Virus record (IMG/VR): IMGVR_UViG_3300045988_107814 | Span: 32,001-96,000 of that record | Source of the DNA: a virus | DNA length: 64,000 bases | Reading direction: 5' to 3' (one strand) | Shown: in pieces, positions 11,987 to 56,577 of the stretch | Layout of the letters: the number at the start of each line of letters is the position of its first letter | Position numbering within the stretch: the first letter of the stretch is position 1 | Program-made: the position numbers and the translations under genes | Notes under the pieces: generated by a model | The model's database searches: none | Seen by the model: only the letters and a program-made list of their open reading frames with translations | Told to the model about the DNA's origin: nothing

Positions 11987-13618
11987 ATGGATATATTTGA
12001 ATATTGTCATAGTGAAATCTATTGGTGTGAAGTTGATAAATGGATACCATTAATAGGAGAAAATATTTTTACCAATGTGAAGAATGCAATTATTCTTCCT
12101 GTATCGTCATTTTTCGGTATGACGAAATCTAATGTATTAGATACGTTTTTCTTATTACCGAAGAGATGCTATAATTCAGATGAAATAAGAAATCATATCT
12201 GTAAATATCTAAACTATTTCGAAAAATTTTATGATCATGAGCATGAACTTTTGTTCTATATGTATAAGATCAAAGTATCTATTGATATGGGTGTGTATGA
12301 TAATGCTGTTGATAATGGTGTTATTATTGATGGCATAGATAATGAGAATACACCACCTAAAATTAAAGCATTCTTATATGATATCAAAACTTATATCTTG
12401 TCCGAATCAATCTACAATAAAGTATGGAGAATGGTTGAGGATAACTATAACCTTGAATTGAATTATAAGAATAAAGCTAACGAAGCACTTCAATATTGTG
12501 ATCGACATGGTAAGTATTTTATGGAGATTAGTATCTTCCAGAATATGCTAATTCCATTGTTGATGCATTTTATGTACAAAGATGATAAGTTAAAGAATGC
12601 GACTGAAATTATGAACGGACTTATCTTCAATGTATACAACTGGTTATTCGACGTTTATAGTAATGAAGCTATAATGGTTAAACGTGGATTAAGACCAGCA
12701 GATATGTTTCAGAAACTATATGAAACTGCAATCACCACAATGAACGCTCATTATAAAACTAATAGAACATTGTGGGATATGTCTAGTATTCGTGGCTATT
12801 GCCCAAATATTAATGCACATGATGCAATTAATACAGTAATAATGCAGGTAATGCCAAAATACACCTTTGAGGGAAACGTTATTACATACAATATAACTTC
12901 TATCAGAAACAATATCAAATATAATATTTCCGATATAAGCTTTGAGTATGATTTCGTTTCTCTAAGTTCCTCAAAACGAGATGGTGAAGATAACACATCT
13001 CAATTTGATAAATTTGAAGCTCATCTACAAAAGACAGATGAGGGCTTGGCTCTACAGAATGATTTCAGAGCTAGAAAAACAATTGAAGATATTTTACAAG
13101 TTAACGGTGATATTCCTCAGAGTGAAATAGATTTTTATAGAAAAGAACTCATTAAGAATGGTCAACCGTTAATCAATAGATTCCAACAGAATCTTGTTGA
13201 TAATGTATTTTATAAATATTTTGGAGATACTGTTTCTACTAACAGTATTAATGGTGACGATTATATTAAGTTGATGATTATTGCCAAAAAACTATTACTA
13301 AGACAAGGAATGATTCTATTACCATATATAGTCGCTAGCAAGGTAGTAAAAATCTCTACTAGAACTTCTCTTTGTAAGAAAGAACTTATGAAGATGGAGC
13401 AGTCTGAGCACTATAATACACTCATGAAAAAATATAATGGTAATAAAAAGGTCATGAATATATTATTTTCGCTAATCGCAACCACGTTATCTAGTAACTT
13501 CAAGATCATTGATTATGATGAAAAGAATAATGTACCAACAGAACTCAATGGTATTGAAGTGCAAATGGAGAATGATATTATAATTGACGAAATGTTAAGA
13601 TTCGTCATTATGATATAA
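11987..13618 (+). CDS. hypothetical protein
   Basis: 543-aa ORF with AGGAGG upstream. Confidence 0.75.
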   Translation: MDIFEYCHSEIYWCEVDKWIPLIGENIFTNVKNAIILPVSSFFGMTKSNVLDTFFLLPKRCYNSDEIRNHICKYLNYFEKFYDHEHELLFYMYKIKVSIDMGVYDNAVDNGVIIDGIDNENTPPKIKAFLYDIKTYILSESIYNKVWRMVEDNYNLELNYKNKANEALQYCDRHGKYFMEISIFQNMLIPLLMHFMYKDDKLKNATEIMNGLIFNVYNWLFDVYSNEAIMVKRGLRPADMFQKLYETAITTMNAHYKTNRTLWDMSSIRGYCPNINAHDAINTVIMQVMPKYTFEGNVITYNITSIRNNIKYNISDISFEYDFVSLSSSKRDGEDNTSQFDKFEAHLQKTDEGLALQNDFRARKTIEDILQVNGDIPQSEIDFYRKELIKNGQPLINRFQQNLVDNVFYKYFGDTVSTNSINGDDYIKLMIIAKKLLLRQGMILLPYIVASKVVKISTRTSLCKKELMKMEQSEHYNTLMKKYNGNKKVMNILFSLIATTLSSNFKIIDYDEKNNVPTELNGIEVQMENDIIIDEMLRFVIMI

Positions 13619-18757: not shown

Positions 18758-20560
18758 TTAGAATATTGGATTTACAAATTTAACAGAATCATCAGGTTGA
18801 ACAGTTAATTCATATAAACAGAGTATATTTTCTTTAGATACATCTCTTGTAGAATAACCGTTCATACCAAGTATTTGAATCTTTGCATCGGCTTGTTTCT
18901 CACATTCTTTATTTGCCTCTATTGTATACACAGGTTTTACAATTGCTGTATCACCATCATAATCCATTCCCATCGCTCCAATTAATCCATTACAAATAGA
19001 CAATGTATCTTCAAACACTGGAGATGTATTTGAATTGATATCCCTGTCAGTTATAATAGGGTACCATTTATATAGCTTATTGTTATCTTCAAAATCAGAT
19101 TGTATTACCATAGGTTGTGTTTTAACAGTAGATTTGATTCTTACTTTTGTAGGATACTGGTTTAAGAACGAGTCAATTGGGAAACGAGTAATTAGAACCA
19201 TCTTATCGGATGTAACATCACAAGCAGCCATATAGAACAAGTCACACCAAGTAAGAGGTCTATTGATCTTTAATTCTGAAGAATATTCTTTTTTCTTTTC
19301 ATCAAAATCTTTAGAATTATTTAACTTATATCCCATAAAGTACATATAAAAGCTTAACTCATTGATTTTAATATTTTTACCAGTAACTGTATCTTTTAAT
19401 TCACCATTCTTAGCACGTCTAGCAAATTCTTCTTTATCTACTGGTAATTCAATAGGAATAAATCTGTTTGAATAACCATGGATGAAACGTTCAATCTGAG
19501 CATCCAATTCTACATCAGAAAAAGCTATCTGATAATCTACAAGAGGAACCATTACTACTTCTTTATCATTAATAGAAATAGGATATTCTAGTTTACCTGC
19601 AAATCTATTCTCAAAGAATCGTCTTAACCAGAACATAATAAATGGTTTAAAACAACACAATGCCGCAGCCAATGGTAATGCAGCATGATTCATATCTACC
19701 ATTAAATCATCAATATCTTCACCAGATACATCTGGTGCAGACATAACTAATCTTGCAGAATAGTCTACTGTCTTATACATTACACCACGTTTAATAAGAC
19801 CCATTTTACCAGGTAAGTTTGCCGGTGTTTCTTGTCCATTAATCGTTGTACCATTACCAAACCAATCAAATATCTGTAATAAAATATTCTGAACTCTAGC
19901 TTTTGTTACATCACTTAAAGTTAGGCCAAATTCAGCAGTTTCTTTTAAAGACTTAGTAGCCATAATCAGACTACTATATAACTTATTAATTTCACCAACA
20001 CCGATACCATTATCTTTAGTATCTACGTCTCTATAATATGGTGGAATTACTATATACTTTGTTACCCATAATTGATTCTTGCACTTTTCAATAAAATCAA
20101 TTCTTCTGTTTCTAGAAGATGATTCATTCTTTTTAAACTTCAATTTACTAAAGTTTCTTTTAAGCCAATCAATACCAGTATTACCATCATCAGATTTAAC
20201 TAATTCACCACCATCATTAATAATAAAATATTCTGTACCGTTAACTACACTTTCAATTTTATTATTTAATTTACATAGTGTCTTATATACTAATGGATGA
20301 AAAAAAGAACTACCAAGATCTATATAAGCATATATACCAGATCTCTCAGCTTTAGTAATACCAAAAATTTCATTAGAAAGCAATCCATCTTCTGTAGGTG
20401 TAGGACCATTAAAAAATACAGGATTAGTAATTTCTTTCAATTGATTTACTCTAATAAATTTATCTACATCTAATAAAGAAGTTTTTAGGTGTTCTGTACT
20501 AGCTTCTGAAAAATAATCAGTTTCATTTTTAACAATATTTACAGCTTCATCTATAAGCAT
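18758..20560 (-). CDS. phage multisubunit RNA polymerase, beta-prime N-terminal-half homolog
   Basis: [23 protein letters not shown] matches bacterial [40 protein letters not shown] matches [25 protein letters not shown] matches the NADFDGD catalytic loop. The protein ends shortly after that loop. Confidence 0.8.
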   Translation of the reverse strand: [600 protein letters not shown]

Positions 20561-31830: not shown

Positions 31831-31868
31831 TCCCAGATGGATTAGATTCCATCTGGGATCTTTATTAT
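31831..31868. terminator. bidirectional terminator between convergent tube and portal genes
   Basis: 11-bp stem TCCCAGATGGA/TCCATCTGGGA flanked by A/T tracts. Confidence 0.7.
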
Positions 31869-34174
31869 TGTTCCTGATTATCATCATTTGTCGCCGCAGC
31901 AACATGTTGTTTTGCCTTATGTGCAATATCTTCAAGCTCTTGAATATTAAGATAAGATCCAAGATTATACTTATTAATTTCACGAATAACTTCATTTTTA
32001 ATTGGATCTTGTTCATCTGGATCAAGAATCAATTGTGCAACACTTTGAGAATATTCGTTTACATTAGTCATCATCTGGTTAGTATTTGTAATATTTAAGA
32101 ACATTGGTGGCGGTAATACTACAGATAACTGAATGTTATCATCAAACTCATTATTATAAATCTTATTAAATATACGAGTAAGATTCTTCTGATATTTACT
32201 TTGACGATTATATACTTTTCTTAAAAACTTACTAGAAGACATAGTTAACTGAGAAGAATAATCTACAGAATTACGCATCTGAATCATTTCCATAGGAACA
32301 TCTGTGCTATTAACAGCCATTTCTTCAAGAGATGTCATAAACTCAGTTTGCCATTCTACTTGTTGACCTTGCATAACTTCAAAATCAATAGGAGCCTGAC
32401 CACCTGGACTTCTAGGAATAATATAATCATTAAACATACCAGTTATATTCAAGATATGGTTAATATTCTCAATCTGTCTAATACCAAAGTTACCTTTCTT
32501 AATCTGATTGATAGTATTAAGTAATGTCTTTGAAATATTAGTATCTACGGTTTGATTTACATAATATACACGTTTATCTTGTGCTCTTGTCATGTTCCAA
32601 ATAGAATGCGTAATATACATAGCACAGTACAATGTTGCTGGGAACATTGCTTTATCTAGATCAGAAATACCTCTATGAGTATCTTTGTTCATATTAAAAT
32701 ATACATGTTCCATATCATCGGGTGGAATAAATGTAACTCTAACCTTATTCATATGAGAACTGTTATTATCATAATTATATTTAAGAACTGTATAAATTTC
32801 ATTTCTTAAATCTTGATTGGCGTTAATAAACTTAGCATCAATAAAATTAGAAATCTGATTAGCAAGAAATCTAATAATAGTATTCTGCTTATTAGATTGA
32901 TCTAGCATACTATTTGTAGAAAGAATAGAATTAGATCCTTTTAAAGACATTGTAGGATCTTGCATCTTATCGTAATCACCTACTGGATTATAAGGACCAT
33001 CCACTTCAATATAATAATAACCAAAACAATACTCTTCAATATAGATAGGAATAACATGTTTACGTTCTAATACCTTTACAATAGTACCAGGTACATTAAT
33101 AAACTTATCATCCTTTGTCTTTCTCTTAGCAGTGTTCTTATCTACTAATCCATCTTGTCCTCTATCATCAAATCCTTCAAATGACAAATCATCTTTAATA
33201 GTCTTCTGAAATCTTCCCTTTACAACATCACGTATATTTTCAGCTGATTCAAGGATTGTTTCTTCAGAAAAATTTGCACCTTCATAATTCAATGACATTT
33301 CGTTCAATGATTGACAAGCTTTTTCAAATCTCATTGTATTTTCTACTACAGAGTTAATTACACCAGTATAACATTCCAATTCAATATTATCCAATCCAGT
33401 CTCTTTAAACATTTCTGGAGTAATATCTTTTGGCAATTCATCCATTTGAATATTACCTGATTCTGTTATAATAGTAGATTCTTTGATATCTAATTCAGCA
33501 CGAGTATTATTCTTTTGCTTTAATAATCTAGCTACTGCCTTCTTATATGGTACAACATAAACAAATGCTTCACCATACTTAGACGCTTGTTCATAAATCT
33601 CATCTGTTAAATCTTGGAACTTATAAGTTTCTTTAATAAACTTAATATGCTCATTATATGTTTCAGAATCATTTGTGATATTTGATGAAGTGATATTAAT
33701 ATAATCTTTAGAAAAATGGTCTGCTGATAGCACATTGTCTTTTCTAGTATCTAATGCCTCTTGCAATCTTGGCATGTATTTTAGAATAGTATCAATCTTG
33801 TTATCATAATCAAATACAGTAGTTGTATTATTGATAAATCCCATTAATCCAGCTTCTATAACTTGACTATCATTAATAAGAGATTCTAAACTTTTACCAG
33901 ATTCTTTATCACCAGGCTTTAAATTACTACCTTGCCGCTGCATTCTAGAATATAGAGTGCTCATAGTTCCTTTACCTGTATTATCCATATTAACAGAAAC
34001 TATGTTATCTATAGAAGAGTCAAGTTTAGATTTAATAGATTCAAGATCTTGTTTATTAGAAGGCTGTGAATAATATGTCTTACTATATAGATTATCTAAG
34101 TTATTTTGAATGGTATTGGAAAGTCTATTAATAATACCACTAGATGATTTTTTCTTATCATCTTTTTTAGCCAT
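31865..34174 (-). CDS. putative portal protein
   Basis: 769 aa. The block FNDYIIPRSPGGQAPIDFEVMQGQQVEWQTEFMTSLEEMAVNSTDVP resembles the T4 gp20-type portal core (ed.f.p...g.rg..i..l.gg.n...i.D..y...kl...l.vP). Comparison made by eye only. Confidence 0.5.
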   Translation of the reverse strand: MAKKDDKKKSSSGIINRLSNTIQNNLDNLYSKTYYSQPSNKQDLESIKSKLDSSIDNIVSVNMDNTGKGTMSTLYSRMQRQGSNLKPGDKESGKSLESLINDSQVIEAGLMGFINNTTTVFDYDNKIDTILKYMPRLQEALDTRKDNVLSADHFSKDYINITSSNITNDSETYNEHIKFIKETYKFQDLTDEIYEQASKYGEAFVYVVPYKKAVARLLKQKNNTRAELDIKESTIITESGNIQMDELPKDITPEMFKETGLDNIELECYTGVINSVVENTMRFEKACQSLNEMSLNYEGANFSEETILESAENIRDVVKGRFQKTIKDDLSFEGFDDRGQDGLVDKNTAKRKTKDDKFINVPGTIVKVLERKHVIPIYIEEYCFGYYYIEVDGPYNPVGDYDKMQDPTMSLKGSNSILSTNSMLDQSNKQNTIIRFLANQISNFIDAKFINANQDLRNEIYTVLKYNYDNNSSHMNKVRVTFIPPDDMEHVYFNMNKDTHRGISDLDKAMFPATLYCAMYITHSIWNMTRAQDKRVYYVNQTVDTNISKTLLNTINQIKKGNFGIRQIENINHILNITGMFNDYIIPRSPGGQAPIDFEVMQGQQVEWQTEFMTSLEEMAVNSTDVPMEMIQMRNSVDYSSQLTMSSSKFLRKVYNRQSKYQKNLTRIFNKIYNNEFDDNIQLSVVLPPPMFLNITNTNQMMTNVNEYSQSVAQLILDPDEQDPIKNEVIREINKYNLGSYLNIQELEDIAHKAKQHVAAATNDDNQEQ

Positions 34175-34195: not shown

Positions 34196-34209
34196 ATTAA
34201 TAGATTGTT
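34196..34209 (-). promoter_or_regulatory. AACA-N6-TAAT candidate phage promoter
   Basis: Minus strand reads AACAATCTATTAAT, 22 nt before the portal ATG at 34174. Confidence 0.4.
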
Positions 34210-34254
34210 GATTTGATTAGTTTTTGTCATTTTGAAATAATTAATCAATTTAGT

Positions 34255-34405
34255 TATATATAATTATAGTGAATAGAAGATAGATTATAGGCTATTATTA
34301 TAAAAGCTATTCGGTCTGGATGCTCGGAGACCTTAAACTGAGCAATGGATGTATAAACTTTGGGGTTAATTTACTATGATCCCACGACGTTAAAGGGAGG
34401 CCAAT
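34255..34405 (+). promoter_or_regulatory. conserved class-II promoter/leader, copy A
   Basis: Shares TATATA.ATTATAGTGAATAGRAGA, GTATAAA(A)CTT and TATGATCCCA(C)GACRTTAAAGGGAG with the minus-strand copy at 56935..57085. Contains the hairpin GGTCT..AGACC. Confidence 0.55.
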
Positions 34406-34927
34406 ATGGTAAAAGACTTTAACACGAACAAGCAATTCAAGCTGACTGAAAGGGAAAATAAAAATCCTAATCAGTCAATATGCTGGAATTGTCAAAACGC
34501 AGTTCCATCTGCAACAACTGGTTGTTGCTGGTCAAGGAACTTTATGCCTGTTAAGGGATGGGAAGCTAAACCCAACCTTGATATGAGATCCTTTAGGATT
34601 AAAAAATGCCCGCTTTTCAAAGAAGAAACTCCTGAAAGTAGGCAAGGAAATTTATGCAAGTATGATTCTGCTTGCATAAAACTAGCGGAGCATATCATTA
34701 AAAGTGAAATATCTCATTATAGAGAAATCTTGAGACAGTATTCACAAGCTCCACTCTACAGTAAGGATAGTCAGAAAGTTGCTGGAGAACTTCATTGCAT
34801 AGAAAGATATTTGTGTAGTGAAGTCTATGCAAACCTTACTATGAGATTGGTAGACCTTAAAGACTTCTGCAATCAACTCAGAAGAGAATATGGGATCGAA
34901 CCGATGGACGAATATTTCGTTTATTGA
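34406..34927 (+). CDS. Cys-rich hypothetical protein (cassette A, gene 1)
   Basis: 173 aa with CWNCQNAVPSATTGCCWS...KKCPLF. Visibly higher GC than its neighbours (about 37% against about 23% in 120-nt hand counts), with different codon choice. Confidence 0.75.
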   Translation: MVKDFNTNKQFKLTERENKNPNQSICWNCQNAVPSATTGCCWSRNFMPVKGWEAKPNLDMRSFRIKKCPLFKEETPESRQGNLCKYDSACIKLAEHIIKSEISHYREILRQYSQAPLYSKDSQKVAGELHCIERYLCSEVYANLTMRLVDLKDFCNQLRREYGIEPMDEYFVY

Positions 34928-34983
34928 TTCAATATACATACGCAATCCACCACCCGACGATGTCCAAAAAGGAGGACTATAAA

Positions 34984-35448
34984 ATGAACAGTTATATCCA
35001 AAAAACCAATGGCGAAAAAACATGGGACAGATACGATTTTGTAAAGTTCCTGGATGGAGATTCTGTAATAACGGAACTCAATAATACAATGGCTGATGCT
35101 ATTTTTCAGTCAATTGTAAACCAGACATTGATTTCTGGTACAGATATCACCGAATCCACACTCAATAGATTCGGTGATATGTATGAAAAGATGATGATTA
35201 GCAAGGTCAACATTTATTGCCTTGATTGTGGCAAGGTTTCAAACGAAGAAGTTCTTTACTTCACAGTAAGTGTGACTGGCTATAAAAGATATTTGAACCT
35301 GAAAAGGCTCTTTACAATCGTTACCGAAAATAATATTACCATCGGTGATATGAAGGAAATGGAGGATAATGATAACAAATTTGTTATCCTCTCTGTCGAT
35401 GAAAGATGGGTATTTGAATGTGAAAGAGAACCGCTAAGAAGAAGATAA
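34984..35448 (+). CDS. hypothetical protein (cassette A, gene 2)
   Basis: Trimmed to the ATG at 34984 (MNSYIQK), preceded by AAAGGAGG. Contains a CLDCG motif. Confidence 0.7.
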   Translation: MNSYIQKTNGEKTWDRYDFVKFLDGDSVITELNNTMADAIFQSIVNQTLISGTDITESTLNRFGDMYEKMMISKVNIYCLDCGKVSNEEVLYFTVSVTGYKRYLNLKRLFTIVTENNITIGDMKEMEDNDNKFVILSVDERWVFECEREPLRRR

Positions 35449-35485
35449 ATTCTTCTAATGACTGATTTATAAGAGACATAAAATA

Positions 35486-35520
35486 AGAAACGTGCTATTG
35501 CCAAGCACGTTTCTTTTTTA
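35486..35520. terminator. bidirectional terminator closing cassette A
   Basis: 11-bp stem AGAAACGTGCT/AGCACGTTTCT followed by TTTTTATT. Confidence 0.7.
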
Positions 35521-36150
35521 TTATAAATCCAGAAAATTCATAAATGTTTGTATGTCAAGATTATCCTTATGAGATATAAACTCAACGATGAAATTATAGT
35601 TATTATTAAGATTATATATTCTAGCATCTAAATCCGTCTTTTTAGTGCCAGGTAACATACTCGGAGTTAAATATATAACCTTATTCTTTAATATATATCT
35701 AGAAGCTCCATCTGCTGTCTTTCTTAATAAAACGTCATTATAAAATCTCTCATCATTATTTAACCCAGAAATATAATCTGTATCAACACAAGATCTAATA
35801 TAAGAACTCAATTCCTCAAGAGTACTAATTGATTTGTTAAAAGAAGTCACTGCATTATATCTTGTAATAGAATCAAAATTTTCAAGAATTCCAATGTCTG
35901 TTTCGAATCCAACAGTTTTATCATATACAACATCTGTAGAATAAATCTTGTTAAAATATTTATCAGAAAGATTATTACACTTAGTCATTATAATATTTCC
36001 TGGATTAGTTACAAACAATATATTTCCAAATATATTGTGTCTAATGACATAAAAGTATTTATTTGTGTTTGTCTTAATCTTCATGCTTTTCAAATATGAT
36101 TTAAATATGGTAGAACTATTTTTGAGATCTTCTCCAAATATATTATCCAT
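35521..36150 (-). CDS. hypothetical protein, translationally coupled to the DNA polymerase N-part
   Basis: 209-aa ORF with a TAATG overlap with the stop of 36150..38192. Confidence 0.75.
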   Translation of the reverse strand: MDNIFGEDLKNSSTIFKSYLKSMKIKTNTNKYFYVIRHNIFGNILFVTNPGNIIMTKCNNLSDKYFNKIYSTDVVYDKTVGFETDIGILENFDSITRYNAVTSFNKSISTLEELSSYIRSCVDTDYISGLNNDERFYNDVLLRKTADGASRYILKNKVIYLTPSMLPGTKKTDLDARIYNLNNNYNFIVEFISHKDNLDIQTFMNFLDL

Positions 36151-38192
36151 TATACAGTCTCTCCAATCTGTTTAGGTTTACTATACAAATAACCATCCTT
36201 AAGACTATCATAAATTTCTGTAAAGTTATTAAAATCAGAATTGTCAAAGTCAAACTTAGGTTGATTGAACTTGTCTTTATTTCCAGATACAATAGCATTT
36301 ACAATTTCCAAGTCACGTTTATTATTACATTTAATAAACATACTTCTATCATCCATTTCAGGACTACCAGAAATATCATCAAAATCATGATATGTCATAA
36401 TTCCACTAGGATATTTCACTGTTGTAAAATACTCAATAATATCATCATACATCTCTTCATATCCAGCAAAATGGAACCAACGACTAAAGAATTCAATCCA
36501 GTTATGAGATTGTAGATCATCCATAAATTGTCCTTCTCGTTTCCATTTAACATCATCACGTCTAAATCTATTTTCAAATTCATATACCTTATTAGGAATA
36601 TTTACATGTCCAATCAAAGTTGTTCTAGACATATTAAATTCAGATGTGATAGATGGATACAAAGCTTTATAATCAAAGTCATCCAAGTTATCAAAGATTG
36701 AAATTGGAACACCATTAATTTTCATCTTAGAATAGTCACTGTTATATTTAGGATCCGCAACAAATGCTCCAGGGAAATTAACTTTAGGATTGTTTTGATT
36801 TGTGTTGTTTCCTATAATCATACCATAGTTATAATATGATTTAGCGGCTCTATTTTTAAGATATACTGTCTGACGATAAATCTTAGACCAACGAGTATTA
36901 TCAAGTAATACATTATTGTATGCTGAATCTATATCATTAACTTTGAATTCAATACAATACTGAACAATAGTATCCATAATATTATAAAATACAAATGTTT
37001 CATAATCTTTATATGGAAGATCAGCAAGTTTATTTGTAATATGACTATAATCAAGCTTCTTTACACCACAAGTAATTTCGCCGATATAATCCAATCGATA
37101 ATTTGCAATTGCCTTTTGACCTTTACGTCTAGATGCAAAGTGAATCATTTGATCAAGATATACAGAATAACTACTAATCTTTGCGAAATCATTACGTTCT
37201 TCATATTTGAACTGATTTCTTTCGTCAATCATATACTTTACTTCTTTATATTTAAAATCTGGACTACACATTATACCTTTAGGATTATATCCAAGATTAA
37301 TAATTCTTTGGATAATATACGGAATATCGAAAGCCATATTCCAAGCAAGTACAATATCAGGTTTAATATTGTTGATATAATTAAATAGATGCTTTAGCAT
37401 TATAATCTCATCTTTCTCATCATAGAAATGAAATTGTACAGTCATCTTATCTACTTTATATTTTCTTGCTTGTTTAGATCCACCTACAGCATTGATAAGA
37501 AAACTCTTTAATTTATTATGAAGAGCAGGAGTATGAGTTTCTTTTTCAAACTTTTCAATCAAAGGATTCTTATCATTTCTCAATAAGAATGAATGAACAA
37601 CTAATGACTGATCATCAATAAAAGACACTGCATTAATCGGACACTCACCCAACGAAACAAAATCTCCTTCACAATCAATGATATCAGCCTCAATATCAAG
37701 AAATGATTTAGTTGGTTTGGTATAGCTATTTTCATATGTGTGAGAAAATTGAAATCTAATATTATCTTCAATATCCATATCAGACATAAGAACTCTAGGA
37801 TCATAGTTACACATTGTTCTATTTCCTAATCTATTACCATTTCTGATATTATCATAGAATTTATTAAGAAGTCCTAATCTCTCAGCAATATCTTTCTGTA
37901 ACTGTTGATATGGAACAATTATACATTTACAATCATCTTTCATTGCATATTCCAAAGTATAATTTGGAATTTCTTGTCCATCAAGAAGCATATAATATTC
38001 ATAACTAGGATCAACAATAGTTTCAAGAAATTTCTCTCCTGTATTACAATCCTTGATAATTAAATCAATTGCTCCTGGTTGCCATTTACCAGACAAATCC
38101 TTTCTAGGATAATGGTAAATAGTATTCAACAAAGATAATGGATATCCTTTTGGATATTGACCTATTAAAAAATCATTATCATAATACTTCAT
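36150..38192 (-). CDS. family B DNA polymerase, N-terminal part (3'-5' exonuclease + polymerase motif A)
   Basis: ExoI FLDIEADI, ExoII LAWNMAFDIPYI, ExoIII FYNIMDTIV, and motif A DFDYKALYPSI. Motifs B and C are absent. Confidence 0.85.
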   Translation of the reverse strand: MKYYDNDFLIGQYPKGYPLSLLNTIYHYPRKDLSGKWQPGAIDLIIKDCNTGEKFLETIVDPSYEYYMLLDGQEIPNYTLEYAMKDDCKCIIVPYQQLQKDIAERLGLLNKFYDNIRNGNRLGNRTMCNYDPRVLMSDMDIEDNIRFQFSHTYENSYTKPTKSFLDIEADIIDCEGDFVSLGECPINAVSFIDDQSLVVHSFLLRNDKNPLIEKFEKETHTPALHNKLKSFLINAVGGSKQARKYKVDKMTVQFHFYDEKDEIIMLKHLFNYINNIKPDIVLAWNMAFDIPYIIQRIINLGYNPKGIMCSPDFKYKEVKYMIDERNQFKYEERNDFAKISSYSVYLDQMIHFASRRKGQKAIANYRLDYIGEITCGVKKLDYSHITNKLADLPYKDYETFVFYNIMDTIVQYCIEFKVNDIDSAYNNVLLDNTRWSKIYRQTVYLKNRAAKSYYNYGMIIGNNTNQNNPKVNFPGAFVADPKYNSDYSKMKINGVPISIFDNLDDFDYKALYPSITSEFNMSRTTLIGHVNIPNKVYEFENRFRRDDVKWKREGQFMDDLQSHNWIEFFSRWFHFAGYEEMYDDIIEYFTTVKYPSGIMTYHDFDDISGSPEMDDRSMFIKCNNKRDLEIVNAIVSGNKDKFNQPKFDFDNSDFNNFTEIYDSLKDGYLYSKPKQIGETV

Positions 38193-39420: not shown

Positions 39421-39483
39421 TCTATATATTATTATAATGATTACATGAAGTAATCAAAATTTTACTTTTAAGGAGTTTAAATT

Positions 39484-39825
39484 ATGGAAATCAACATCGA
39501 TGGAATTGAAACTTTGGCAACTGATTTTTTCAGTAATCTTGACACTTGTCGTCCTGAACCCGTGCAACTTACTTTAGGTGAAGAATGTTATGTAGTAGAT
39601 CAATCTATGATAGATGAAGAGAATGAATCATATGCATTCATTCCTTGTATCGTTGTAAGAATTGATCAGTCTACAAGAATTCCTGGAAGATGGTATTATG
39701 CTCTTCAGGCAAAAGATTCAATTAATGATAAAGCGTTAAACTCTATTAGGGAAGGGGATTTATTATATTATAAATATCTTGAAAATACATCTCCGTTTCT
39801 TATGAAAATTAACGAAGTTAGATAA
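39484..39825 (+). CDS. hypothetical protein
   Basis: 113-aa ORF with AAGGAG upstream. Confidence 0.7.
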   Translation: MEINIDGIETLATDFFSNLDTCRPEPVQLTLGEECYVVDQSMIDEENESYAFIPCIVVRIDQSTRIPGRWYYALQAKDSINDKALNSIREGDLLYYKYLENTSPFLMKINEVR

Positions 39826-41243: not shown

Positions 41244-43856
41244 ATGAGTCTAACGTATAAAGACATTATTGTGCGTCAGAGAAATCTTTTATCTGAAGTA
41301 TATACTTGTGATACTAATGTATTGCAATTATATAATTCAATAAAAGAGAATTATTCTTTTGCCAAGGCTAAGTTATTTTTAGAGCATTGGTATGGGCTTA
41401 GAGTAGAGGATGTTGCTATCAATAAAGTATTAGAAGTATTTACTATTATTGCTGACAATGATAATGAATCTAATATTAAAAATGCTGCTAATATTATTGA
41501 AAGTAATATTATTCCAAAACTTCGTAATGCTAAACAAACAAATATGCTTAACCATTATAAACGTGGTTGGATTAAGCATAAACACACATCTATGCTTAAT
41601 GATACTAAAGATAATGAAACAGCAGTATCTAGAGCAAAAGCAAATAAAGGATATTTAGGAAATTCATTACATCCAAATAGAAAATATAAGAGAGATATAT
41701 ATGGTAGAAAAATGGGTGAAGTAAAGAAAGCCAACTCTCAAGAAAATGGTAGTGAAGAAGGACAACAAGACAACCAAAAAGTAACAGAAGAATGTTTTAA
41801 TAGATTTATTGCTAAAGCATTTGTCAATGAACAATGCGATAGAGTTTTGACAAATCATAGTAAATTAACAAGACGATTTAATCTAGATAGTATTATAAGA
41901 AAATGTCCTCTAGATCAAGCATCATTACAAGAGTGTGTATATAATATATGTAATCTTATAGATACTTATGATGCTCCTATTGGAGTAAAGTATGATATCG
42001 CTCTTGAAAATATCATGTATTTAATGAATAAAAACTGTGTTCCTGTGAGCAATACATTCATTATCGAAACAGTTACAGATTATTTTTTAATGTCTGAAAA
42101 TGAAAATCTTACTAATACAGCAAAGATTCATGATATGGTATATATTATTGAAAATTCTAAATTCTTTACAGAAGATGAATTAAAATGTGTATCTTATTTA
42201 TATGAAGATGAACAAGCTATTATCGAAGCTGTAGAGAATGAAGAAGATATAGATCGAGAACCATTAGAAGAAAATAAAGTACATGATATGTTTATGAAAT
42301 ATAAGAAAAAGAAAATAATTACATTAAAAAAGAAACAAAAGGTAGAATCTCTTAAAATTAAAAAAGAGATTCATGACTTTAAAAAACAACACAATAAATC
42401 TATCGAAAAATTTAAAGTTTCGATATCTAGAATTTTTGTTAATAGTCCAGAAGGTATTATTAATGAACTTCCAGATATATTTGCATTTGTTAGATTAGGA
42501 ATTGTTGTTGGTGGTTTTGCTATTAATCCTATTCTTGGTGTAATTACATTAGTAACTGGATTCTTTTTAAAAATGAAAGTATCTAGAGATAGAATGGAAA
42601 AAGTATGTGCTCAGTATGAAAAAGAACGTGATCATTATAAAAAGAAAATGAATGAAGCAACTGACGAAAAGAAGAAAAAGAAATATGAAGAACTGTATAA
42701 ACAGTATAAAAGTGATCTAAATAAATTAGAAATGTATAGAGATGAACTATATACAGAAAAAGAAAATGATAAGAGAATGGAAGAAAAATACGCTAAAGAA
42801 GCTGAAAATAATAATGATGATTTCGACTTTGATTTTGATATGGATTTTAATTTTGATGAACAGACTGCAATAGAATATACAGAAAGATTAGCTACATTGT
42901 ATGAGCAATTATCTTATGCTAAAGGAAATCTAATGAAAGCAGTATCTAGTAATATAAGTAATATGGATAGTAATGATATATATGGTATATCAGAAGCTAT
43001 TAAATTATGTAATGATATTGTGGATTGTCCAAGATATGTATCTATCCTAGAAGATGATTTATCAAGAACAAGAGCAAATAAATCTATATCATATATTTCA
43101 TCATTACAGAAGATTGATGCTATTAAAACATGTATATCAGATATAGATAAGATCAAATATAATGGTTTATTAGAAAATGCTTATGTAATAAACGATGACA
43201 CTGTTCAAAATGATATTATATATATTTATAAAACTCTAAAATGTAAATATGATATCATTGATGATACTATTGATTATATAACTAGTGCTATTACAGAAGC
43301 TAAAGATGAAAAATCTGGTATGTCATTTATGAGTAAAATGAAAATAGCATCTGAAAATCTTAGAAGAACAATGTTAAAAGCAAAAGATAAAGACAAACAA
43401 CTCAGTATGAAACTAGATAGCGAATTAAACAGAGTTACTAAGTCTGCTAAGAGAGCTATGATTAGTGATAGTAGAGAAAGTATTATTCGTGGTTCATTCT
43501 TACCATCTGCTTCTAAGTGTATTCATATCGCTCTAGCTTCTGGTGTTGCAGCATTATTTAGCCCAGTATTCGCAGTTATTGGTCTTATTGGATACATCGG
43601 TTGTTCTAAATCTTTAACAGAAAAAGAGCGTAATCTTATTCTAGATGATATCGATATAGAAATAAAAATGTGTGATAAATACATGAAAATTGCTGAAGAT
43701 AAGGATGATTTAGTTGCAGTTAGAGAAATAATGAAAACAAAACGAGATTTGGAAAGACAACGTGCTAGAATTCTATATAATAAAAAGTATATCTTCAAAG
43801 GAAAGAAACAATATGACATGCCTGATTTGAAAAAGAAACATGAAAATGATGATTAA
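41244..43856 (+). CDS. large coiled-coil, Lys-rich protein with two hydrophobic helices
   Basis: 870 aa. Hydrophobic segments are IFAFVRLGIVVGGFAINPILGVITLVTGFFL and IHIALASGVAALFSPVFAVIGLIGYIGC. AAGGAGG upstream. Confidence 0.75.
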   Translation: MSLTYKDIIVRQRNLLSEVYTCDTNVLQLYNSIKENYSFAKAKLFLEHWYGLRVEDVAINKVLEVFTIIADNDNESNIKNAANIIESNIIPKLRNAKQTNMLNHYKRGWIKHKHTSMLNDTKDNETAVSRAKANKGYLGNSLHPNRKYKRDIYGRKMGEVKKANSQENGSEEGQQDNQKVTEECFNRFIAKAFVNEQCDRVLTNHSKLTRRFNLDSIIRKCPLDQASLQECVYNICNLIDTYDAPIGVKYDIALENIMYLMNKNCVPVSNTFIIETVTDYFLMSENENLTNTAKIHDMVYIIENSKFFTEDELKCVSYLYEDEQAIIEAVENEEDIDREPLEENKVHDMFMKYKKKKIITLKKKQKVESLKIKKEIHDFKKQHNKSIEKFKVSISRIFVNSPEGIINELPDIFAFVRLGIVVGGFAINPILGVITLVTGFFLKMKVSRDRMEKVCAQYEKERDHYKKKMNEATDEKKKKKYEELYKQYKSDLNKLEMYRDELYTEKENDKRMEEKYAKEAENNNDDFDFDFDMDFNFDEQTAIEYTERLATLYEQLSYAKGNLMKAVSSNISNMDSNDIYGISEAIKLCNDIVDCPRYVSILEDDLSRTRANKSISYISSLQKIDAIKTCISDIDKIKYNGLLENAYVINDDTVQNDIIYIYKTLKCKYDIIDDTIDYITSAITEAKDEKSGMSFMSKMKIASENLRRTMLKAKDKDKQLSMKLDSELNRVTKSAKRAMISDSRESIIRGSFLPSASKCIHIALASGVAALFSPVFAVIGLIGYIGCSKSLTEKERNLILDDIDIEIKMCDKYMKIAEDKDDLVAVREIMKTKRDLERQRARILYNKKYIFKGKKQYDMPDLKKKHENDD

Positions 43857-43870
43857 TGGAGGTGAATAAT

Positions 43871-44884
43871 ATGGATTATTTGGAAGGTCTTAGAAATATA
43901 ATTCTTAATGAATTGAATATTGGTGGTCAAGAAGTACAAGAAGAAAATGATGATGATAACGGAGATCAGAATTTTATGGATGACGATGATAATCCGCCAG
44001 CAGAAGAACCTGCACCCGCTGAAGATGCTCCAGCACCAGATGAAGGAGAAGATGATACATCCGATGATGGTGATCAAAACTTCATGGATGACGATGGTGG
44101 TGGAGATGATGCACCTGTTGAAGATGCTCCTACAGACGACGGATCATCTGATGATGGAGATCAGAATTTTATGGATGATGATAGTGGTGAGGGAGATACA
44201 TCTGATACTGGAGAAGAACCTGCTAGTGATGATGGATCCGCTGAAGATGATGGCGATCAAAACTTCATGGATGACGATAGTAGTGGAGAAGGAGGAGACT
44301 CTGCTGAAGGTGGTGGAGATGATTCTGGATCTGAAGAAGCTCCTGAAGATAGTGGTGATCAACAAGAAGGAGAAGAACAGCCTGAAGGTCAAGATTATGA
44401 TATTAATAAGATTGAAGACGAATTGTTCTCTAGTTTAACACCAGAACAAATTGCTATTAAAAATCATGAATTAAAAGATCAATTCATTGAACTGTATTCT
44501 ATTATCGGTAGTACTTTAGTCAGAATCAATGATATATCTAAATCTAATGAAAATATTAATGTACTAAAATTTATTACAGAAAAATTATTAGAGCTTAGAG
44601 AAATGATTGACTTTAATATTACTACTGCATATCAGACTAGAACTTATATTGAAAATAATATTATTTATCAACAATGTATAGCAACTCTTAATGCTATAGC
44701 AGATATTATTGATAATATTCCTAAATTAGATGGTAGAGACGAAGATCAAGAAGAAGATGAAGAAGACAAGAATGGTATTTCAGTAGAAGATGACGATGAA
44801 GAAGAAGTAAAAGCACTAGACATTTCTGACACTAGTGTAAGCAATTATCAAGAAGAATCTACAGATTATAATTCTTTATTTTAA
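43871..44884 (+). CDS. acidic repeat protein, scaffold/internal-head-protein candidate
   Basis: Trimmed to the ATG at 43871 (MDYLEGL) after GGAGGTG. It has four GDQNFMDDD motifs in a D/E/G/P-rich region, then a helical C-terminal half. It lies immediately upstream of the putative capsid gene. Confidence 0.7.
   Translation: MDYLEGLRNIILNELNIGGQEVQEENDDDNGDQNFMDDDDNPPAEEPAPAEDAPAPDEGEDDTSDDGDQNFMDDDGGGDDAPVEDAPTDDGSSDDGDQNFMDDDSGEGDTSDTGEEPASDDGSAEDDGDQNFMDDDSSGEGGDSAEGGGDDSGSEEAPEDSGDQQEGEEQPEGQDYDINKIEDELFSSLTPEQIAIKNHELKDQFIELYSIIGSTLVRINDISKSNENINVLKFITEKLLELREMIDFNITTAYQTRTYIENNIIYQQCIATLNAIADIIDNIPKLDGRDEDQEEDEEDKNGISVEDDDEEEVKALDISDTSVSNYQEESTDYNSLF
43961..44281 (+). repeat. four spaced copies of a 30-nt coding motif (GDQNFMDDD) in an A-B-A-B pattern
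   Basis: Copies start at 43961, 44069, 44156 and 44252. Copies 1 and 3 use cagaatttt; copies 2 and 4 use caaaacttc. Confidence 0.85.
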
Positions 44885-51414: not shown

Positions 51415-53637
51415 TTAACCCATGAAAGTAAACAGTTCATTAGGCTTTCCTTCATTTTCCACAACCGGATTTTCTGCAAGGAATTTCTGAGGCTGAACCA
51501 TATAAAGAAGATCGTATCCAGACGGTTCACTCTTCTTATAGCTTAACGGGTTATAAAGCATTCTTGCAATATCCTGAGACTGAAGAGCTACAGAAATACT
51601 CGGATGAGTTTGAATAGCTTTCTTCAATGTCAGAATTGTATAATTCTGCTGATTAGGAACTGACCAGTCTGGAACGTCAATAATATTTTCAGCAGAACGA
51701 ATCTGATTCATAATGATAATCTCAAGATGAACACTCATAATTCCATCAAGACCAATGTTGTTAAGCTTATCACTCAACGCTTCAAGGAATGTCTCTGCTG
51801 TATAGCTATCTGTATTTGACTTTCTATCGATAACTCTAATAACAGATTCAAGTCTCTCAGACATATCATCATTATGAATACTTTCAAGATCAAACAAAGG
51901 ATAATCTTCACCGATAAGATTGTTTACTGGAATAGTAATATCTTCATCAACATCATTAATATTCTTGAGTTTAAGATACTCAATAAGCCATTCGCTTAAT
52001 TGGAAATTATCCAAGTTAGTAGACTTGATAGGATATTCCATACCAGTAGATTCATTTCTGAGATAAAATACATTTACATATTTAATAATCTCATCAAATG
52101 TTGCATCAATATCGTCATCATCAGATTCATCACTTTCGATAGCAGCAAACACTTCTTCTTGAATGTCACCATCTTTAATAATGAATTTCCATTTCTTAGC
52201 ATCTTCAAATTCTGGATTAATATAGATAGTACCATTATCAACTACAATAAGCTGTTCAAGTTGTTCCTTAGTAAGCATACTAGTATCAAATGTCAACTCA
52301 TCAATCTTTGCTTCGAGAAGATGTTTTGCAGACAACATCATCTGAGTCAACGGTTCTGTCAGATTTGTTACACTATAAATTCCAATATTTACAGCAGGAA
52401 TAATATTGTATAACTCACCCATACACTTTCTACAAACACCTCTACCCTCTGCGGCAGATCTACATTTGATTGGGCTTCTTAAATAGATTTCCTTTCCAAT
52501 AAGATTAGAATTAACTTTAGTGATATTATAAACATCACTAGTTCTATATTCCATTCCCATTGGGTCCAGTCTGTAATATCTATCGGCAATCTTCTTTAAT
52601 GCTACCTCATCAGTAACTTTGTACTTCAAGAAATTACGAGTACCACAATCATATCCAGGATCAATCTTATTTGTATATGGGATAGTATACTTCTTCGTTC
52701 TAGAACAATTAAGAATCATAATTCTACTAAACTGACCAGAACGAGCAGTATTTTTCTTTGACAGAATCTGTGCAATTCTTGCAATCAAAGACTCAAGAAT
52801 ATGAAATGCAACATTAGTAGCACCACCACTAATATAATTAGTGTTTACTACATAAGGGAAAATACCACCCTCGCCATTAGGCTTGACACCAATATTGATA
52901 TACATTTCACGAGCCTGTTTAGGTTTAATACCTTCTTTTGCTCTAAATGCATCAGATAAGCAATGATCTCTACCAATATATTTCTTAGCATTTACAATAT
53001 AATCGATAAGACGATTCATATCTTTTAATGCTTCTGCATTCATCTGCTCAGGTGGGAACTGAGAATAATAGTTGGTCTTATGTCTGTCCATAATTTCTTT
53101 AAAACCAGGGCAGTTATTATACATAAGAATAAAGTCTTCGTTGTTGATAGAATTGTTAAAGAACCACGCAAACTTATCAACAAACTTAAGATTCCTCAGA
53201 GTATCATAGATAATTCTATTAAGATTATGAATAATCATAATATCACTATCATTACCACATCTTTCTCTTGTAGGAATAATAGCAAATCTATCAATATACT
53301 TCTTGATATAGCCGTTGGTAATACCGTCCTTATTAAAGAATACATGATACGGTTTAATTGTTTGACCAGTTTTAATAATAAACTGCCAAACAATGATGTT
53401 GATAAGAGAATAAGACAACGGCAATCTTACTCTCATATTATTATCGAAAACGAATTCAATTTTTGTATTCTGAATTGCCTGAATTTCAATATAATCCAAG
53501 AATACATTTTTCAAATCATTAACATAATCATCAATGTTAGATTCATTGATATCACTTGTTCTAATGGTAACAGAATTACCATTAATCACTGGTGTAAAAA
53601 CACCATAATCATAAATTTGGGCAACGTTAGTGTTCAT
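51415..53637 (-). CDS. phage multisubunit RNA polymerase, beta-prime C-terminal-half homolog
   Basis: [24 protein letters not shown] matches bacterial [38 protein letters not shown] matches AAQSIGEPGTQLTMRTFH (trigger loop region). Confidence 0.75.
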   Translation of the reverse strand: [740 protein letters not shown]

Positions 53638-54408: not shown

Positions 54409-56508
54409 ATGGACATTACTCAAATTGTTAAAAGTAAAACAACAGATCTTTATAAAAAAGATATGTTAGATGCACTTAAGTTATCTTTTCCAGGTATGAC
54501 AGAAACTGATTTAATGGAAGCTATTGATTATTCTATTACAAAAAGAGGTAGCGATAGTAAAGCATATCTAGATAATAACTATAAGAAAATAAGAGAAAAC
54601 AGAACTCTATTTGAAATTACTGATTATATTATACAGAGAGAACCAATCATTACAGTTTCAGGTGTAATGTTTAGAAAACATGGTTATTGTCCTAATCCTT
54701 TTGTAATGCTTATTCAGGAATTCTTGGAGCAAAGAGGTATTTATAAAAAGACAATGTTTAAATATCCTAAAGGTTCTGAGGAATTTGAAAAGTATAATAT
54801 TCTTCAGTTATCAGAAAAAGTATCTGGTAATGCAATGTATGGTGCTTCTGGTAATCATACAAGTATCTTTTATAATCTTTATGTTGCACAGAGTATTACA
54901 ATGCAAGGTAGAAGTTGTATTGCATCAGCTATTATGTTATTCGAAGCAACAATGGCTAATAATGTAAAGTTACTTAGTCTGAATGATGCGGTGACTTTTA
55001 TTACAAATATTAGACGTGAGCCTGTATTAAAGTATCCAGATGAATTGATTATTGATAAAGATAATTATGTAACTGTAGAAGAATGTTTCTTTAAGATTCT
55101 TTATAGTTCTGGATTCTATTGGATTCCTACAGAAAAAGAAATGACTCTTATTTGGGATATTCTTAATCAGTGTAATCAGCATGAATTGAATAAGATTTTC
55201 TATAAGAATAATCTATTTTGGTTTGTTGATAATAGCCTTGTTATGAACAAGATTATTTCTATTCTTTCTACTCTTGATGAGCCATTTATTGATCCTAATA
55301 GTCCTCCTGAATCTATTAAAGGTATGATGGATGAATTATATGATATGATCTATGAATGGGTTTATTATGATAAACAATATATGGATAGAATTGATAGAAC
55401 AGAAAATATGTACAGATGTGTATCTATGCTTACAGATACAGATAGCTGTTTTATTTCTTTTGATGGATGGTATAGATATATTCTTGATAAGACATTTAAT
55501 ATTCCTATGAAGATTAAAGAGCTTGAAATTGAAGAAAAAACAGGTGAAGTAAAGGAAGCATTTGATATAGGCTATGACTATGACTTTTATAAAGATGAAA
55601 TTATTGAAAGTCAGAATATTATTAGACCTGATGTAATTATTCCTCAGGTTGGTTTTCGTTGTAGTATCATCAATATTCTTGCAAGTATTATGGGAAGACT
55701 TGCTATTGATTATATGTGTAAGTATTCTGATAATTCTAATTCTACTATTTGTCATGATGGTTCTCGACGTAAAAGTTTCTTTATTCTTAAGAATGAATTC
55801 CAACTTAAACGTGCTTTGATTACAGATGGGAAAAAGAATTATTGTGCATATCAAGAACGTCAAGAATCTAATATTATTCCAAAAGAAAAAGCTCTTGCAA
55901 TTACAGGCATGCCGATCAAAAAAGTAGGTGTTCCAGAATCTACAAAAGTTAGACTTCAAAAAATTCTTCTTGAACAAATTCTAGATAATCCTGGCGAAAT
56001 TTCTCAAGTAGAAATTGTAAAACAGTTAGCTATATTCGAAAAACAAATTATTCAAGCTATCGAAAATGGTAGTAAAGAATATTTTAAACCAGAAAGAATC
56101 AAAGCTAAAGATGCTTATGATAATCCTATGAGAGAATCTGGTGTTAAGGCCGCAATAGCATTTAACTTCCTCAAGGATGACGATATGGAAGCTATTGATC
56201 TTGATGAAAGAAATAGTATTCTAAATATTAAAGTAAATATTGATCTTAAAAATATTGAGAATATGAAAGATAGATATCCAGATGTTTATAAACGTGCTAT
56301 TGAACTAATGTCAACAAGAAAAGAATTTGAAAAAGGAATTACTGCTATCGCTATTCTAGACAATATGCAAGTACCTGAATGGATTAAGGAATATATTGAT
56401 TATACTACTATTGTAAATGATAATCTTAGACCATTTCCTTGCGAAGCCTTAGGTATTGATAGAATGGACAACAAGAATATTAATTATACTAATATTTTGA
56501 AGTTTTAG
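54409..56508 (+). CDS. family B DNA polymerase, C-terminal part (motifs B and C, thumb)
   Basis: Motif B QLSEKVSGNAMYGASG (Kx3NSxYG), motif C MLTDTDSCFI (DTDS), and KKxY as GKKNYCAY. No exonuclease motifs and no motif A. Confidence 0.85.
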   Translation: MDITQIVKSKTTDLYKKDMLDALKLSFPGMTETDLMEAIDYSITKRGSDSKAYLDNNYKKIRENRTLFEITDYIIQREPIITVSGVMFRKHGYCPNPFVMLIQEFLEQRGIYKKTMFKYPKGSEEFEKYNILQLSEKVSGNAMYGASGNHTSIFYNLYVAQSITMQGRSCIASAIMLFEATMANNVKLLSLNDAVTFITNIRREPVLKYPDELIIDKDNYVTVEECFFKILYSSGFYWIPTEKEMTLIWDILNQCNQHELNKIFYKNNLFWFVDNSLVMNKIISILSTLDEPFIDPNSPPESIKGMMDELYDMIYEWVYYDKQYMDRIDRTENMYRCVSMLTDTDSCFISFDGWYRYILDKTFNIPMKIKELEIEEKTGEVKEAFDIGYDYDFYKDEIIESQNIIRPDVIIPQVGFRCSIINILASIMGRLAIDYMCKYSDNSNSTICHDGSRRKSFFILKNEFQLKRALITDGKKNYCAYQERQESNIIPKEKALAITGMPIKKVGVPESTKVRLQKILLEQILDNPGEISQVEIVKQLAIFEKQIIQAIENGSKEYFKPERIKAKDAYDNPMRESGVKAAIAFNFLKDDDMEAIDLDERNSILNIKVNIDLKNIENMKDRYPDVYKRAIELMSTRKEFEKGITAIAILDNMQVPEWIKEYIDYTTIVNDNLRPFPCEALGIDRMDNKNINYTNILKF

Positions 56509-56514
56509 TAACAA

Positions 56515-56552
56515 AAAATAAACAGGACGTAAAGTCCTGTTTATTTCTTTTT
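56515..56552. terminator. bidirectional terminator between convergent genes
   Basis: 13-bp stem AAATAAACAGGAC/GTCCTGTTTATTT followed by CTTTTTGC. Confidence 0.7.
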
Positions 56553-56577
56553 GCTTTGTGAAGATATGTTTATAGTA

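Follow-up and report, generated by a model that had tools for sequence, protein, structure and literature searches.

Jumbo phages that encode their own RNA polymerase (RNAP) depend little on host transcription, and host takeover and counter-defence functions are expected among their early genes, most of which are ORFans. Accessory genes of phages are known as morons (the Hendrix/Juhala concept) in temperate phages, where they are expressed from the prophage by the host RNAP, and acr-aca operons combine, behind a strong early promoter, a small fast-evolving ORFan effector with a conserved regulator of the helix-turn-helix (HTH) type. In T4-like phages, PeSL cassettes consist of non-essential ORFans with an early promoter on one side and a stem-loop on the other, and encapsidated mini-circles formed by recombination between repeats are a further feature of these cassettes (Arbiol et al. 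2010, PMC2839356; Comeau et al. 2014, PMC4122927). For the jumbo phage AR9, differential RNA sequencing (dRNA-seq) defined an early promoter used by the virion RNAP, AAATATATATTAT-(6N)-G+1, and the late promoter, used by the non-virion RNAP, is AACA-(6N)-TA/G (PMC5312081); early promoters of this type are marked by transcription at 5 min that does not depend on protein synthesis. Here we analyse a cassette of two genes, A and B, in a 64,000-nucleotide (nt) stretch of the IMG/VR virus record IMGVR_UViG_3300045988_107814 (positions 32,001 to 96,000 of that record; hereafter, the whole stretch is called the window). We consider it probable that this locus is an early accessory module that is bounded by a promoter and a terminator, is swapped by recombination at a hot-spot and probably acts in host or defence interaction. 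The element is of a kind already known (moron, PeSL-like cassette), and we found no description in the literature of a virion-RNAP early box, a long leader and a terminator as an exchange unit in the AR9-like clade.

Comparison with described systems

The locus resembles PeSL cassettes in that a conserved early promoter and a terminator enclose small ORFans, which lie between conserved core blocks, and in that close relatives differ by insertion, deletion or replacement at these motifs, which serve as recombination points. It differs in its promoter (of the AR9 virion-RNAP type, whereas that of T4 is sigma-70-like and used by the host RNAP), in its long conserved leaders (77–167 nt), in empty sites that keep a terminator and not a composite terminator/promoter unit, and in the use of two isolated junctions in place of long hyperplastic regions. 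Like a moron, the unit is inserted between genes that are adjacent in relatives, deviates in composition and has a predicted terminator of its own, and its box is a candidate promoter; unlike a moron, it resides in an apparently virulent-type jumbo phage and the box belongs to the early class of the phage itself, so that expression from a prophage outside the lytic programme probably does not apply. The likeness to the early units of AR9 (Lavysh et al. 2017, PMC5312081) extends to a box, TATATAT[AT]AT-(6N)-G, that fits the AR9 early consensus, to an AACA-(6N)-TA late motif at the neighbouring structural gene and to homologous split RNAP subunits, but the box is extended downstream here (TATAGTGAATAG) and this extension is confined to accessory cassettes. 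With acr-aca operons there is a functional analogy only: a fast-evolving ORFan at a variable locus is linked to a protein of an HTH-connected family, but A itself is without an HTH, the conserved gene comes first and the variable gene follows, and neither A nor B has homology to known Acr or Aca proteins.

The cassette junction in related phages

The locus was compared with 47 IMG/VR loci recovered with a probe for the N-terminal half of the family-B DNA polymerase (PolB-N; PolB identity of 43–85%) and with six close relatives from Logan/ENA; PolB identity across the ~50 compared jumbo-phage contigs spans 43–99%. The backbone order p316 / PolB-N / p209 / junction / 769-aa gene / p373 (aa, amino acids) is kept in close and intermediate relatives on a tblastn map, and the same order is found in distant relatives, in which p209 is usually undetectable by tblastn. 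The cassette is inserted where the replication block, with its terminator, meets a structural gene and its late promoter: the late-promoter-like motif of the 769-aa gene forms the left boundary of the site and stands outside the cassette, which is bounded on the right by the terminator hairpin (Table 1). Both flanks are transcribed from the minus strand. The sole match of the 769-aa gene, a candidate portal gene, is phrog_3004 (‘virion structural protein’). The initial annotation of this DNA had drawn a plus-strand island of two genes between these minus-strand blocks, and both open reading frames (ORFs) were found in place and on that strand.

A and B are not orthologous genes kept at this position in all relatives; they occur only in the nearest lineage, the backbone of which is 96–99% identical. 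In the next tier (PolB identity of 76–85%), L011, L012, L013, L015 and L017 have a junction of 89–117 bp that holds the late promoter and the terminator hairpin only, compared with a distance of 1346 bp between the 209-aa and 769-aa genes in the window. Other members of this tier carry a single gene instead—an ORFan of 66 aa in L007, an ORFan of 98 aa in L014, and in L008–L010 a gene of 149–156 aa that is a distant homologue of B (hhalign probability of 75%, E = 2.4e-5)—and each of these cargoes has the same early box upstream and a hairpin terminator at its end. A deep allele pair occupies the junction in L136–L138, whose 769-aa gene is 98% identical: in L136, A′ is 50% identical to A and B′ is ~36% identical to B (hhalign probability of 98%), the leader is short and different, and the box and terminator are the same as in the window. 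Presence/absence polymorphism exactly at the junctions, which had been proposed as a check on the cassette, is therefore found, with relatives either empty or carrying another single gene. The two-gene unit is non-essential and compositionally deviant. The earlier reading of the island as a moron or accessory cassette is supported by this polymorphism, by the lack of homology to core functions and by an atypical GC content at third codon positions (GC3).

Several assemblies of relatives stop at the edges of the cassette. The Logan contigs of L001, L002, L004, L005, L006, L054 and L055 end 95–149 nt upstream of gene A, in the promoter/leader; three close-relative Logan contigs begin at an identical base, TGGATGCTCGG; and the contigs of L136–L138 end ~40 nt past the stop codon of B′, inside the terminator hairpin. 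Contig ends at the cassette boundaries suggest either that regulatory modules recur at other places in the genome or that strains branch at these boundaries. A long repeat of the leader inside the window was considered as an explanation and rejected, as the 64 kb contain no such repeat.

Promoter box, leader and terminator

The box upstream of gene A, AGTTATATATAAT-TATAGT-G, matches 9 of the last 10 positions of the AR9 early consensus, with the G after 6 nt. At a second junction of the window, a sibling cassette (described below) has the box CTTTATATATTAT-TATAGT-G, which matches 10 of 13 AR9 early positions (the last 10 exactly), again with the G after 6 nt; the box upstream of the sibling gene reads TATATATTAT-TATAGT-G. 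The 64 kb contain only two exact copies of the 14-mer ATTATAGTGAATAG, at 34263 (+) before A and at 57060 (−) before the sibling gene, and the leaders of the two share a 3′ box, TATGATCCCA(C)GAC(G/A)TTAAAGGGAG, just ahead of the ribosome-binding site (RBS). Allowing up to three substitutions, the extended 20-mer box has 17 matches in 1.1 Mb of related jumbo-phage loci versus 0–2 in shuffled sequences, and all 17 face into small cassette genes behind leaders of 77–167 nt. Sigma-70-like promoters are not in excess in the cassette region (17 matches versus 15.9 in shuffles). Given that the box is near-identical to the experimentally defined AR9 early promoter, we infer by analogy immediate-early transcription from G 34271, and the cassette would be an early transcription unit with a 135-nt 5′ untranslated region (UTR). 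The ‘class-II leader’ that the initial annotation had assigned to the island corresponds to this predicted AR9-type early promoter and 5′ UTR. Both genes have a strong RBS (AAAGGGAGG ahead of the ATG at 34406 for A, and AAAGGAGGA ahead of the ATG at 34984 for B).

On the opposite strand, 45 bp from the box of A, the late motif AACA-ATCTAT-TA fits the AR9 late consensus, and AACA-(6N)-TA is kept upstream of the 769-aa gene in close and intermediate relatives, including those with an empty site. The AR9 late promoter is reported to be read on the template strand and to depend on deoxyuridine (dU) (PMC9209446); as the AR9-type late consensus is kept, the DNA of this clade may by analogy also contain dU.

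The leader of A is far better conserved among relatives than gene A (alignments A1 and A14). Compensatory or wobble changes were seen in two stems (GGTCT/AGACC versus AGTCT/AGACT in stem 1; GGGGT/ATCCC versus GGGG/CCCC versus TGGAT/ATCCA in stem 2), in a comparison that comprises four distinct sequences only. We do not claim the leader as a structured RNA element, considering its folding energy (z = −0.68) and the lack of an Rfam match, either for the window at the gathering threshold or for the A leader at E ≤ 1. A mixed alignment of the A leader with the leaders of L008–L010 gave no consensus structure, and no tRNAs were found in the window.

The strong bidirectional terminator proposed for the right end of the island is confirmed as a hairpin with a 12-bp stem and T-runs on both strands that scores as a predicted terminator in either direction; the 2.5-kb region contains 3 terminator-like sites versus 0.6 expected. 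A hairpin terminator is present at every junction examined, cargo-bearing or empty, and its sequence is common only to close relatives (the window, L008–L010 and L136).

A further exact match to the short early box, TATATATTAT-TATAAT-G, was observed at 39423..39439 (+), 45 nt upstream of a conserved 113-aa gene (39484..39825). It is without the extended GTGAATAG part found at the cassettes, and may serve a core gene as an early or continuous promoter.

Composition and allele exchange

The description of the island as a GC-richer insert holds: total GC is 37.2% in A and 35.1% in B, compared with 25.2% in the adjacent 209-aa gene, 29.2% in the 769-aa gene and 30.4% in the window. The total GC of A is not unique in the window (the capsid gene has 38.0%), and the clearest signal comes from GC3, which is 34.5% in A (z = 2.6) and 37.4% in B (z = 3.1), the top two values of 52 window genes (mean, 20.3%; s.d., 5.5). 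The two genes thus do not have the typical composition of the phage. Among Leu codons, CTG (0.12 versus 0.04) and CTC (0.25 versus 0.03) are enriched in the cassette and TTA (0.04 versus 0.38) is depleted, and GGC accounts for 0.25 of Gly codons versus 0.07. Of the three codons that had been named as differing, CTG and GGC are therefore enriched, whereas AAG is used equally (0.40 versus 0.40). The A and B alleles of relatives are likewise rich in GC3 (35–47%), except for the L136 pair, in which A′ and B′ have 18% and 23%, that is, native composition. Behind the same early box, GC3 is 35–47% in the B-like genes of L008–L010 and 27.7% in the sibling gene, against 18–20% in the backbone. Horizontal origin is the best, although not the sole, reading of the GC3 excess.

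Sliding identity against the close relative L003 is 93–100% up to the promoter (~34267), 62–80% across A and 78–88% across B, with 92–97% in the last part of A and the A–B spacer, and is back to 92–98% from the terminator (~35480). The breakpoints of divergence thus coincide with the promoter and the terminator, and the conserved island between A and B is likely to be a recombination joint. Pairwise Nei–Gojobori estimates of synonymous (dS) and non-synonymous (dN) divergence gave a dS of 0.04–0.4 and a dN/dS of 0.02–0.16 for the flanks. For A, dS is 0.27–2.1 (mostly >0.5), 5–10 times that of the flanks in a backbone that is 96–99% identical, and dN/dS is 0.07–0.25; A is constrained, but its alleles long predate the backbone, a pattern that implies allele replacement by recombination. 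In the main allele group of B, dS is flank-like (0.03–0.30) and dN/dS is 0.40–0.91, which indicates fast protein evolution in place; L001 and L054 carry deep alleles of B (29–39% aa identity). Compared with the window, L006 has an A allele that is 68% identical and a B allele that is 97% identical, whereas the values in L005 are 88% and 75%, which shows that the A and B alleles reassort independently.

Table 1 Coordinates of the cassette, its flanks, the sibling cassette and marker genes in the 64-kb window
Feature	Position	Strand	Remarks
Gene A	34406..34927	+	173 aa; ORF call
Gene A, N-terminal four-Cys zinc-ribbon domain	~aa 22–75, nt 34469..34630	+	
Gene A, C-terminal helical domain	~aa 84–165	+	
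Gene B	34984..35448	+	154 aa from the ATG after AAAGGAGGA; ORF and RBS
Late-promoter-like motif AACA-ATCTAT-TA of the flanking 769-aa gene	34198..34209	−	Read from the sequence
Early-promoter-like box TATATATAAT-TATAGT-G	34255..34271	+	Predicted +1 is G 34271
Predicted 135-nt 5′ leader	34271..34405	+	3′ end is box TATGATCCCACGACGTTAAAGGGAGG; RBS included
A–B spacer with RBS of B	34928..34983	+	
Bidirectional intrinsic-terminator hairpin, 12-bp stem	35485..35515	both	Shared with the convergent 209-aa gene
769-aa gene	31865..34174	−	Left flank
209-aa gene	35521..36150	−	Right flank
PolB-N	36150..38192	−	Right flank; exonuclease/N-terminal half
PolB-C	54409..56508	+	PF20286 ‘divergent PolB’, C-terminal half
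Sibling cassette	56520..57081	−	Between PolB-C and the >2277-aa ORF
Sibling early box	57065..57081	−	
Sibling gene	56578..56934	−	118-aa ORFan
Sibling terminator hairpin	56520..56542	−	
Split RNAP gene	11987..13618		phrog_25005
Split RNAP gene	18758..20560		phrog_2986
Split RNAP gene	51415..53637		phrog_3015

Proteins encoded by the cassette

The Cys-rich motifs that had been noted in the first gene (CWNC, CCWS and KKCP) are found in gene A, the product of which comprises a zinc-ribbon domain and a helical domain. The close family of A consists of 6 clusters only, but a profile search with the domain recovered 1581 representatives (E ≤ 1e-3; clusters at 50% identity) with four invariant Cys residues (C26, C29, C40 and C68) and the signature [LI]CWxCxNAVP...GC[SC]WS...PVxGWxA...CPx[FY]. 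The zinc-ribbon domain may stand by itself or be fused to other domains, and it can lie at the N- or the C-terminal end; recurrent N-terminal fusion partners are HTH_26, HTH_3, HTH_23, HTH_7 and Sigma70_r4. The two-domain architecture of A, including the C-terminal helical domain, is common to remote full-length homologues, in some of which the helical domain matches phrog_7024 (unknown function). The zinc-ribbon domain is without a model in Pfam, NCBIfam and PHROGs (the best Pfam match is Znf_XAF1_N; E = 0.041, 13.7 bits versus a cut-off of 27), and this family of at least 1581 clusters, typical of prophages of Oscillospirales and other Clostridia, is a candidate new domain family. Its bacterial carriers are gut and rumen Clostridia, including Oscillospiraceae, Ruminococcus, Christensenellaceae and Flavonifractor; in a tblastn search of 50,697 GenBank phages, the domain was found in three unannotated faecal contigs only. 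In prophage-like contexts, DnaB, primase and RusA genes lie upstream of the zinc-ribbon gene, and downstream come regulators (phrog_36 in 6 of 52; phrog_248) and then the terminase and portal genes; the order in L112 is DnaB, zinc-ribbon gene, sigma-region-4-like gene, HNH, TerS and TerL. The statement that the zinc ribbon is always next to a sigma-like regulator was dropped in favour of ‘sometimes’, as Pfam identifies one Sigma70_r4 in 23 immediate downstream neighbours. A likeness of A to secondary-channel factors of the DksA/TraR type (zinc finger plus coiled coil), with the domain order reversed, is not claimed.

The family of B comprises 11 clusters only among 5.8 billion proteins, all from this phage clade, and B has no tblastn match among the same GenBank phages. 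Sequence searches of the PDB with single profiles and with deeper alignments (A2, A3, A8 and A13) gave no match below E = 0.09, and none of the libraries Pfam, PHROGs, NCBIfam and PADLOC returned an above-threshold match to A, B, the sibling gene or the other cargoes. The initial annotation could recognise neither protein, and we concur: no library, solved-structure or fold search (AlphaFold2; Foldseek of B) names A or B, and no clear homology to a core replication or structural function was found for either. Both proteins are uncharacterised; the family of A is very large and uncurated.

Alternative explanations and proposed role

Several observations weigh against the view of the locus as a swapped early module with a role in host or defence interaction. 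The L136 alleles are native in composition, which indicates that foreign origin is not inherent to the module. Promoter class and timing are assigned by a motif match to AR9, and the RNAP subunit is only ~30% identical to that of AR9-group phages; the minimum free energy (MFE) of the A leader is no better than that of shuffles. The high dN/dS of B could reflect relaxed constraint instead of an arms race. Fusion to HTH domains is no proof that the zinc ribbon itself regulates, and its association with regulators is partial, with phrog_36 downstream in 6/52 cases and almost no +1 neighbours recognised by Pfam. AlphaFold2 models from shallow family alignments are poor for both proteins (pLDDT of 43 for A, essentially two unconfident helices; pLDDT of 49 for B), Foldseek of the B model against the PDB gave nothing meaningful (best E = 0.15, TM ≤ 0.27), and none of A, B, the sibling gene and the divergent B alleles matches the PADLOC defence library.

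The GC3 excess could alternatively arise from selection of early genes for host-like codon usage, as these genes are translated before phage functions build up, in which case the cassette would have diversified in place and not been acquired horizontally. As this explanation would have it, GC3 is generally higher in cargoes that share the early box than in the backbone, and B has the same dS as the flanks within its main allele group; yet L136 A′ and B′ stand behind the same box with native GC3 (18% and 23%), and the dS of A, 5–10 times that of the flanks, together with the sharp identity breakpoints, requires allele import and not in-place drift, so that we regard codon adaptation as unlikely. 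A different possibility is that A is a temporal-switch transcription factor that redirects the phage or host RNAP, with B as its cofactor, in a core regulatory module. The fusion of zinc-ribbon relatives to HTH or sigma-region-4-like domains, the position of the Clostridia prophage genes at the replication-to-late boundary beside transcriptional regulators, the purifying selection on A and an early-type promoter, which would suit a factor needed later, all fit such a role. However, relatives with a PolB identity of 76–85% are without A, their site being empty or otherwise filled, and A is therefore not essential to the temporal programme of the clade; in addition, late promoter recognition in AR9 is ascribed to the non-virion RNAP (PMC5312081). 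We consider the temporal switch rather improbable.

That the cassette protects the infected cell from competing phages, as a superinfection-exclusion or toxin–antitoxin (TA)-like module, seems to us very unlikely, although the unit is early-type, non-essential and variable and its two linked genes remain paired across deep alleles: searches for PADLOC models, TA families, membrane segments and nuclease domains found no match, and the independent reassortment of A and B alleles would be unusual for a tightly co-evolving TA pair. There remains the reading of the island as a non-coding spacer with chance ORFs, for which one might cite the lack of an annotated homologue and the two poor structure models. 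The ORFs are intact in every allele at 29–97% identity and both have a strong RBS, and the 1581 relatives of the A domain with its four invariant Cys, together with the dN/dS of A (0.07–0.25), refute this reading, to which we give practically no credence.

We return to the early accessory module as the preferred reading. The injected virion RNAP would transcribe the cassette right after infection, from G 34271 through the 135-nt leader, and homologous recombination at the promoter/leader, the A–B spacer and the terminator would swap cargo between co-infecting relatives, following the logic of T4-like PeSL cassettes. A may be a regulatory partner that binds nucleic acid or RNAP, B may be the effector, in contact with a host or defence target that varies, and the two together would provide a non-essential early function, for example, host takeover or counter-defence. 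More speculatively, and with considerable doubt, A and B could be an undescribed early takeover/counter-defence pair of dU-type AR9-like jumbo phages of gut Clostridia, in which B is the arms-race effector and A, acting on RNAP or nucleic acid, is the founding studied member of a zinc-ribbon plus helical family; such modules could be the jumbo-phage equivalent of PeSL cassettes for shuffling early accessory genes.

The extended early box and the terminator provide a sequence handle for finding the early accessory gene pool of this clade, a pool that would be exchanged at regulatory motifs, as in T4-like phages, with a different polymerase. The locus also yields two concrete candidates—a constrained zinc-ribbon protein from a large Clostridia-phage family and its fast-evolving partner. 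Even if their function proves ordinary, the locus would still be a clear case of a lytic jumbo phage with moron-type modularity.

Sibling cassette and further sites

The initial annotation had named a sibling cassette at 56515..57085, and the region does contain an element of the same kind at a second hot-spot, with an early box, a leader, an ORFan and a terminator (Table 1). Its leader is structured (folding z = −3.85). In relatives, this junction ranges from 125 bp (empty) to 847 bp (filled), and the cargoes are unrelated ORFans on the minus strand with the same box upstream; none has a Pfam match. In L129, L130 and L135, a more distant lineage whose C-terminal PolB half (PolB-C) is 63% identical, an extended early box lies upstream of PolB-C and faces away from it into a 135-aa ORF (at ~3871 (−) in L130 and L135, and at 1193 (−) in L129); this is a third cassette site of the clade.

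Next to the sibling cassette, a stop-less ORF starts with the ATG at 57170 (+) and is still open where the window ends (>2277 aa), with an N terminus that is 44–50% identical in relatives. The ORF listing is near-empty over 57–64 kb because this stop-less ORF occupies 57170..64000.

Phage type and other features of the window

The phage is an uncultured AR9/PBS1/S6-like jumbo phage of ~220 kb with low GC and its own split multisubunit RNAPs. The window encodes split RNAP genes (Table 1), the major head protein and a split family-B DNA polymerase, the halves of which lie ~16 kb apart on opposite strands. The nearest cultured relatives of the RNAP subunit are those of Listeria phage LPJP1 (34%), Staphylococcus phages S6, PALS_2 and SA1, Bacillus phages BpSp and Goe21, and Yersinia phage phiR1-37, and related contigs measure 212–263 kb. 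In the distant relatives L037, L038, L043 and L053, the PolB-N match spans 2.4–2.8 kb versus the usual 1.8–2.0 kb, which suggests an inserted element within PolB-N.

Repeats were observed inside several genes. The gene at 43856..44884 (+) contains four copies of a 44-nt direct repeat (43955..44349, with spacings of 87–108 nt) that encode an acidic repeat resembling DDGDQNFMDDD. Likewise within genes, 72 nt are duplicated in tandem at 1447..1590, and a 75-nt repeat occurs at 3934 and again at 4192.

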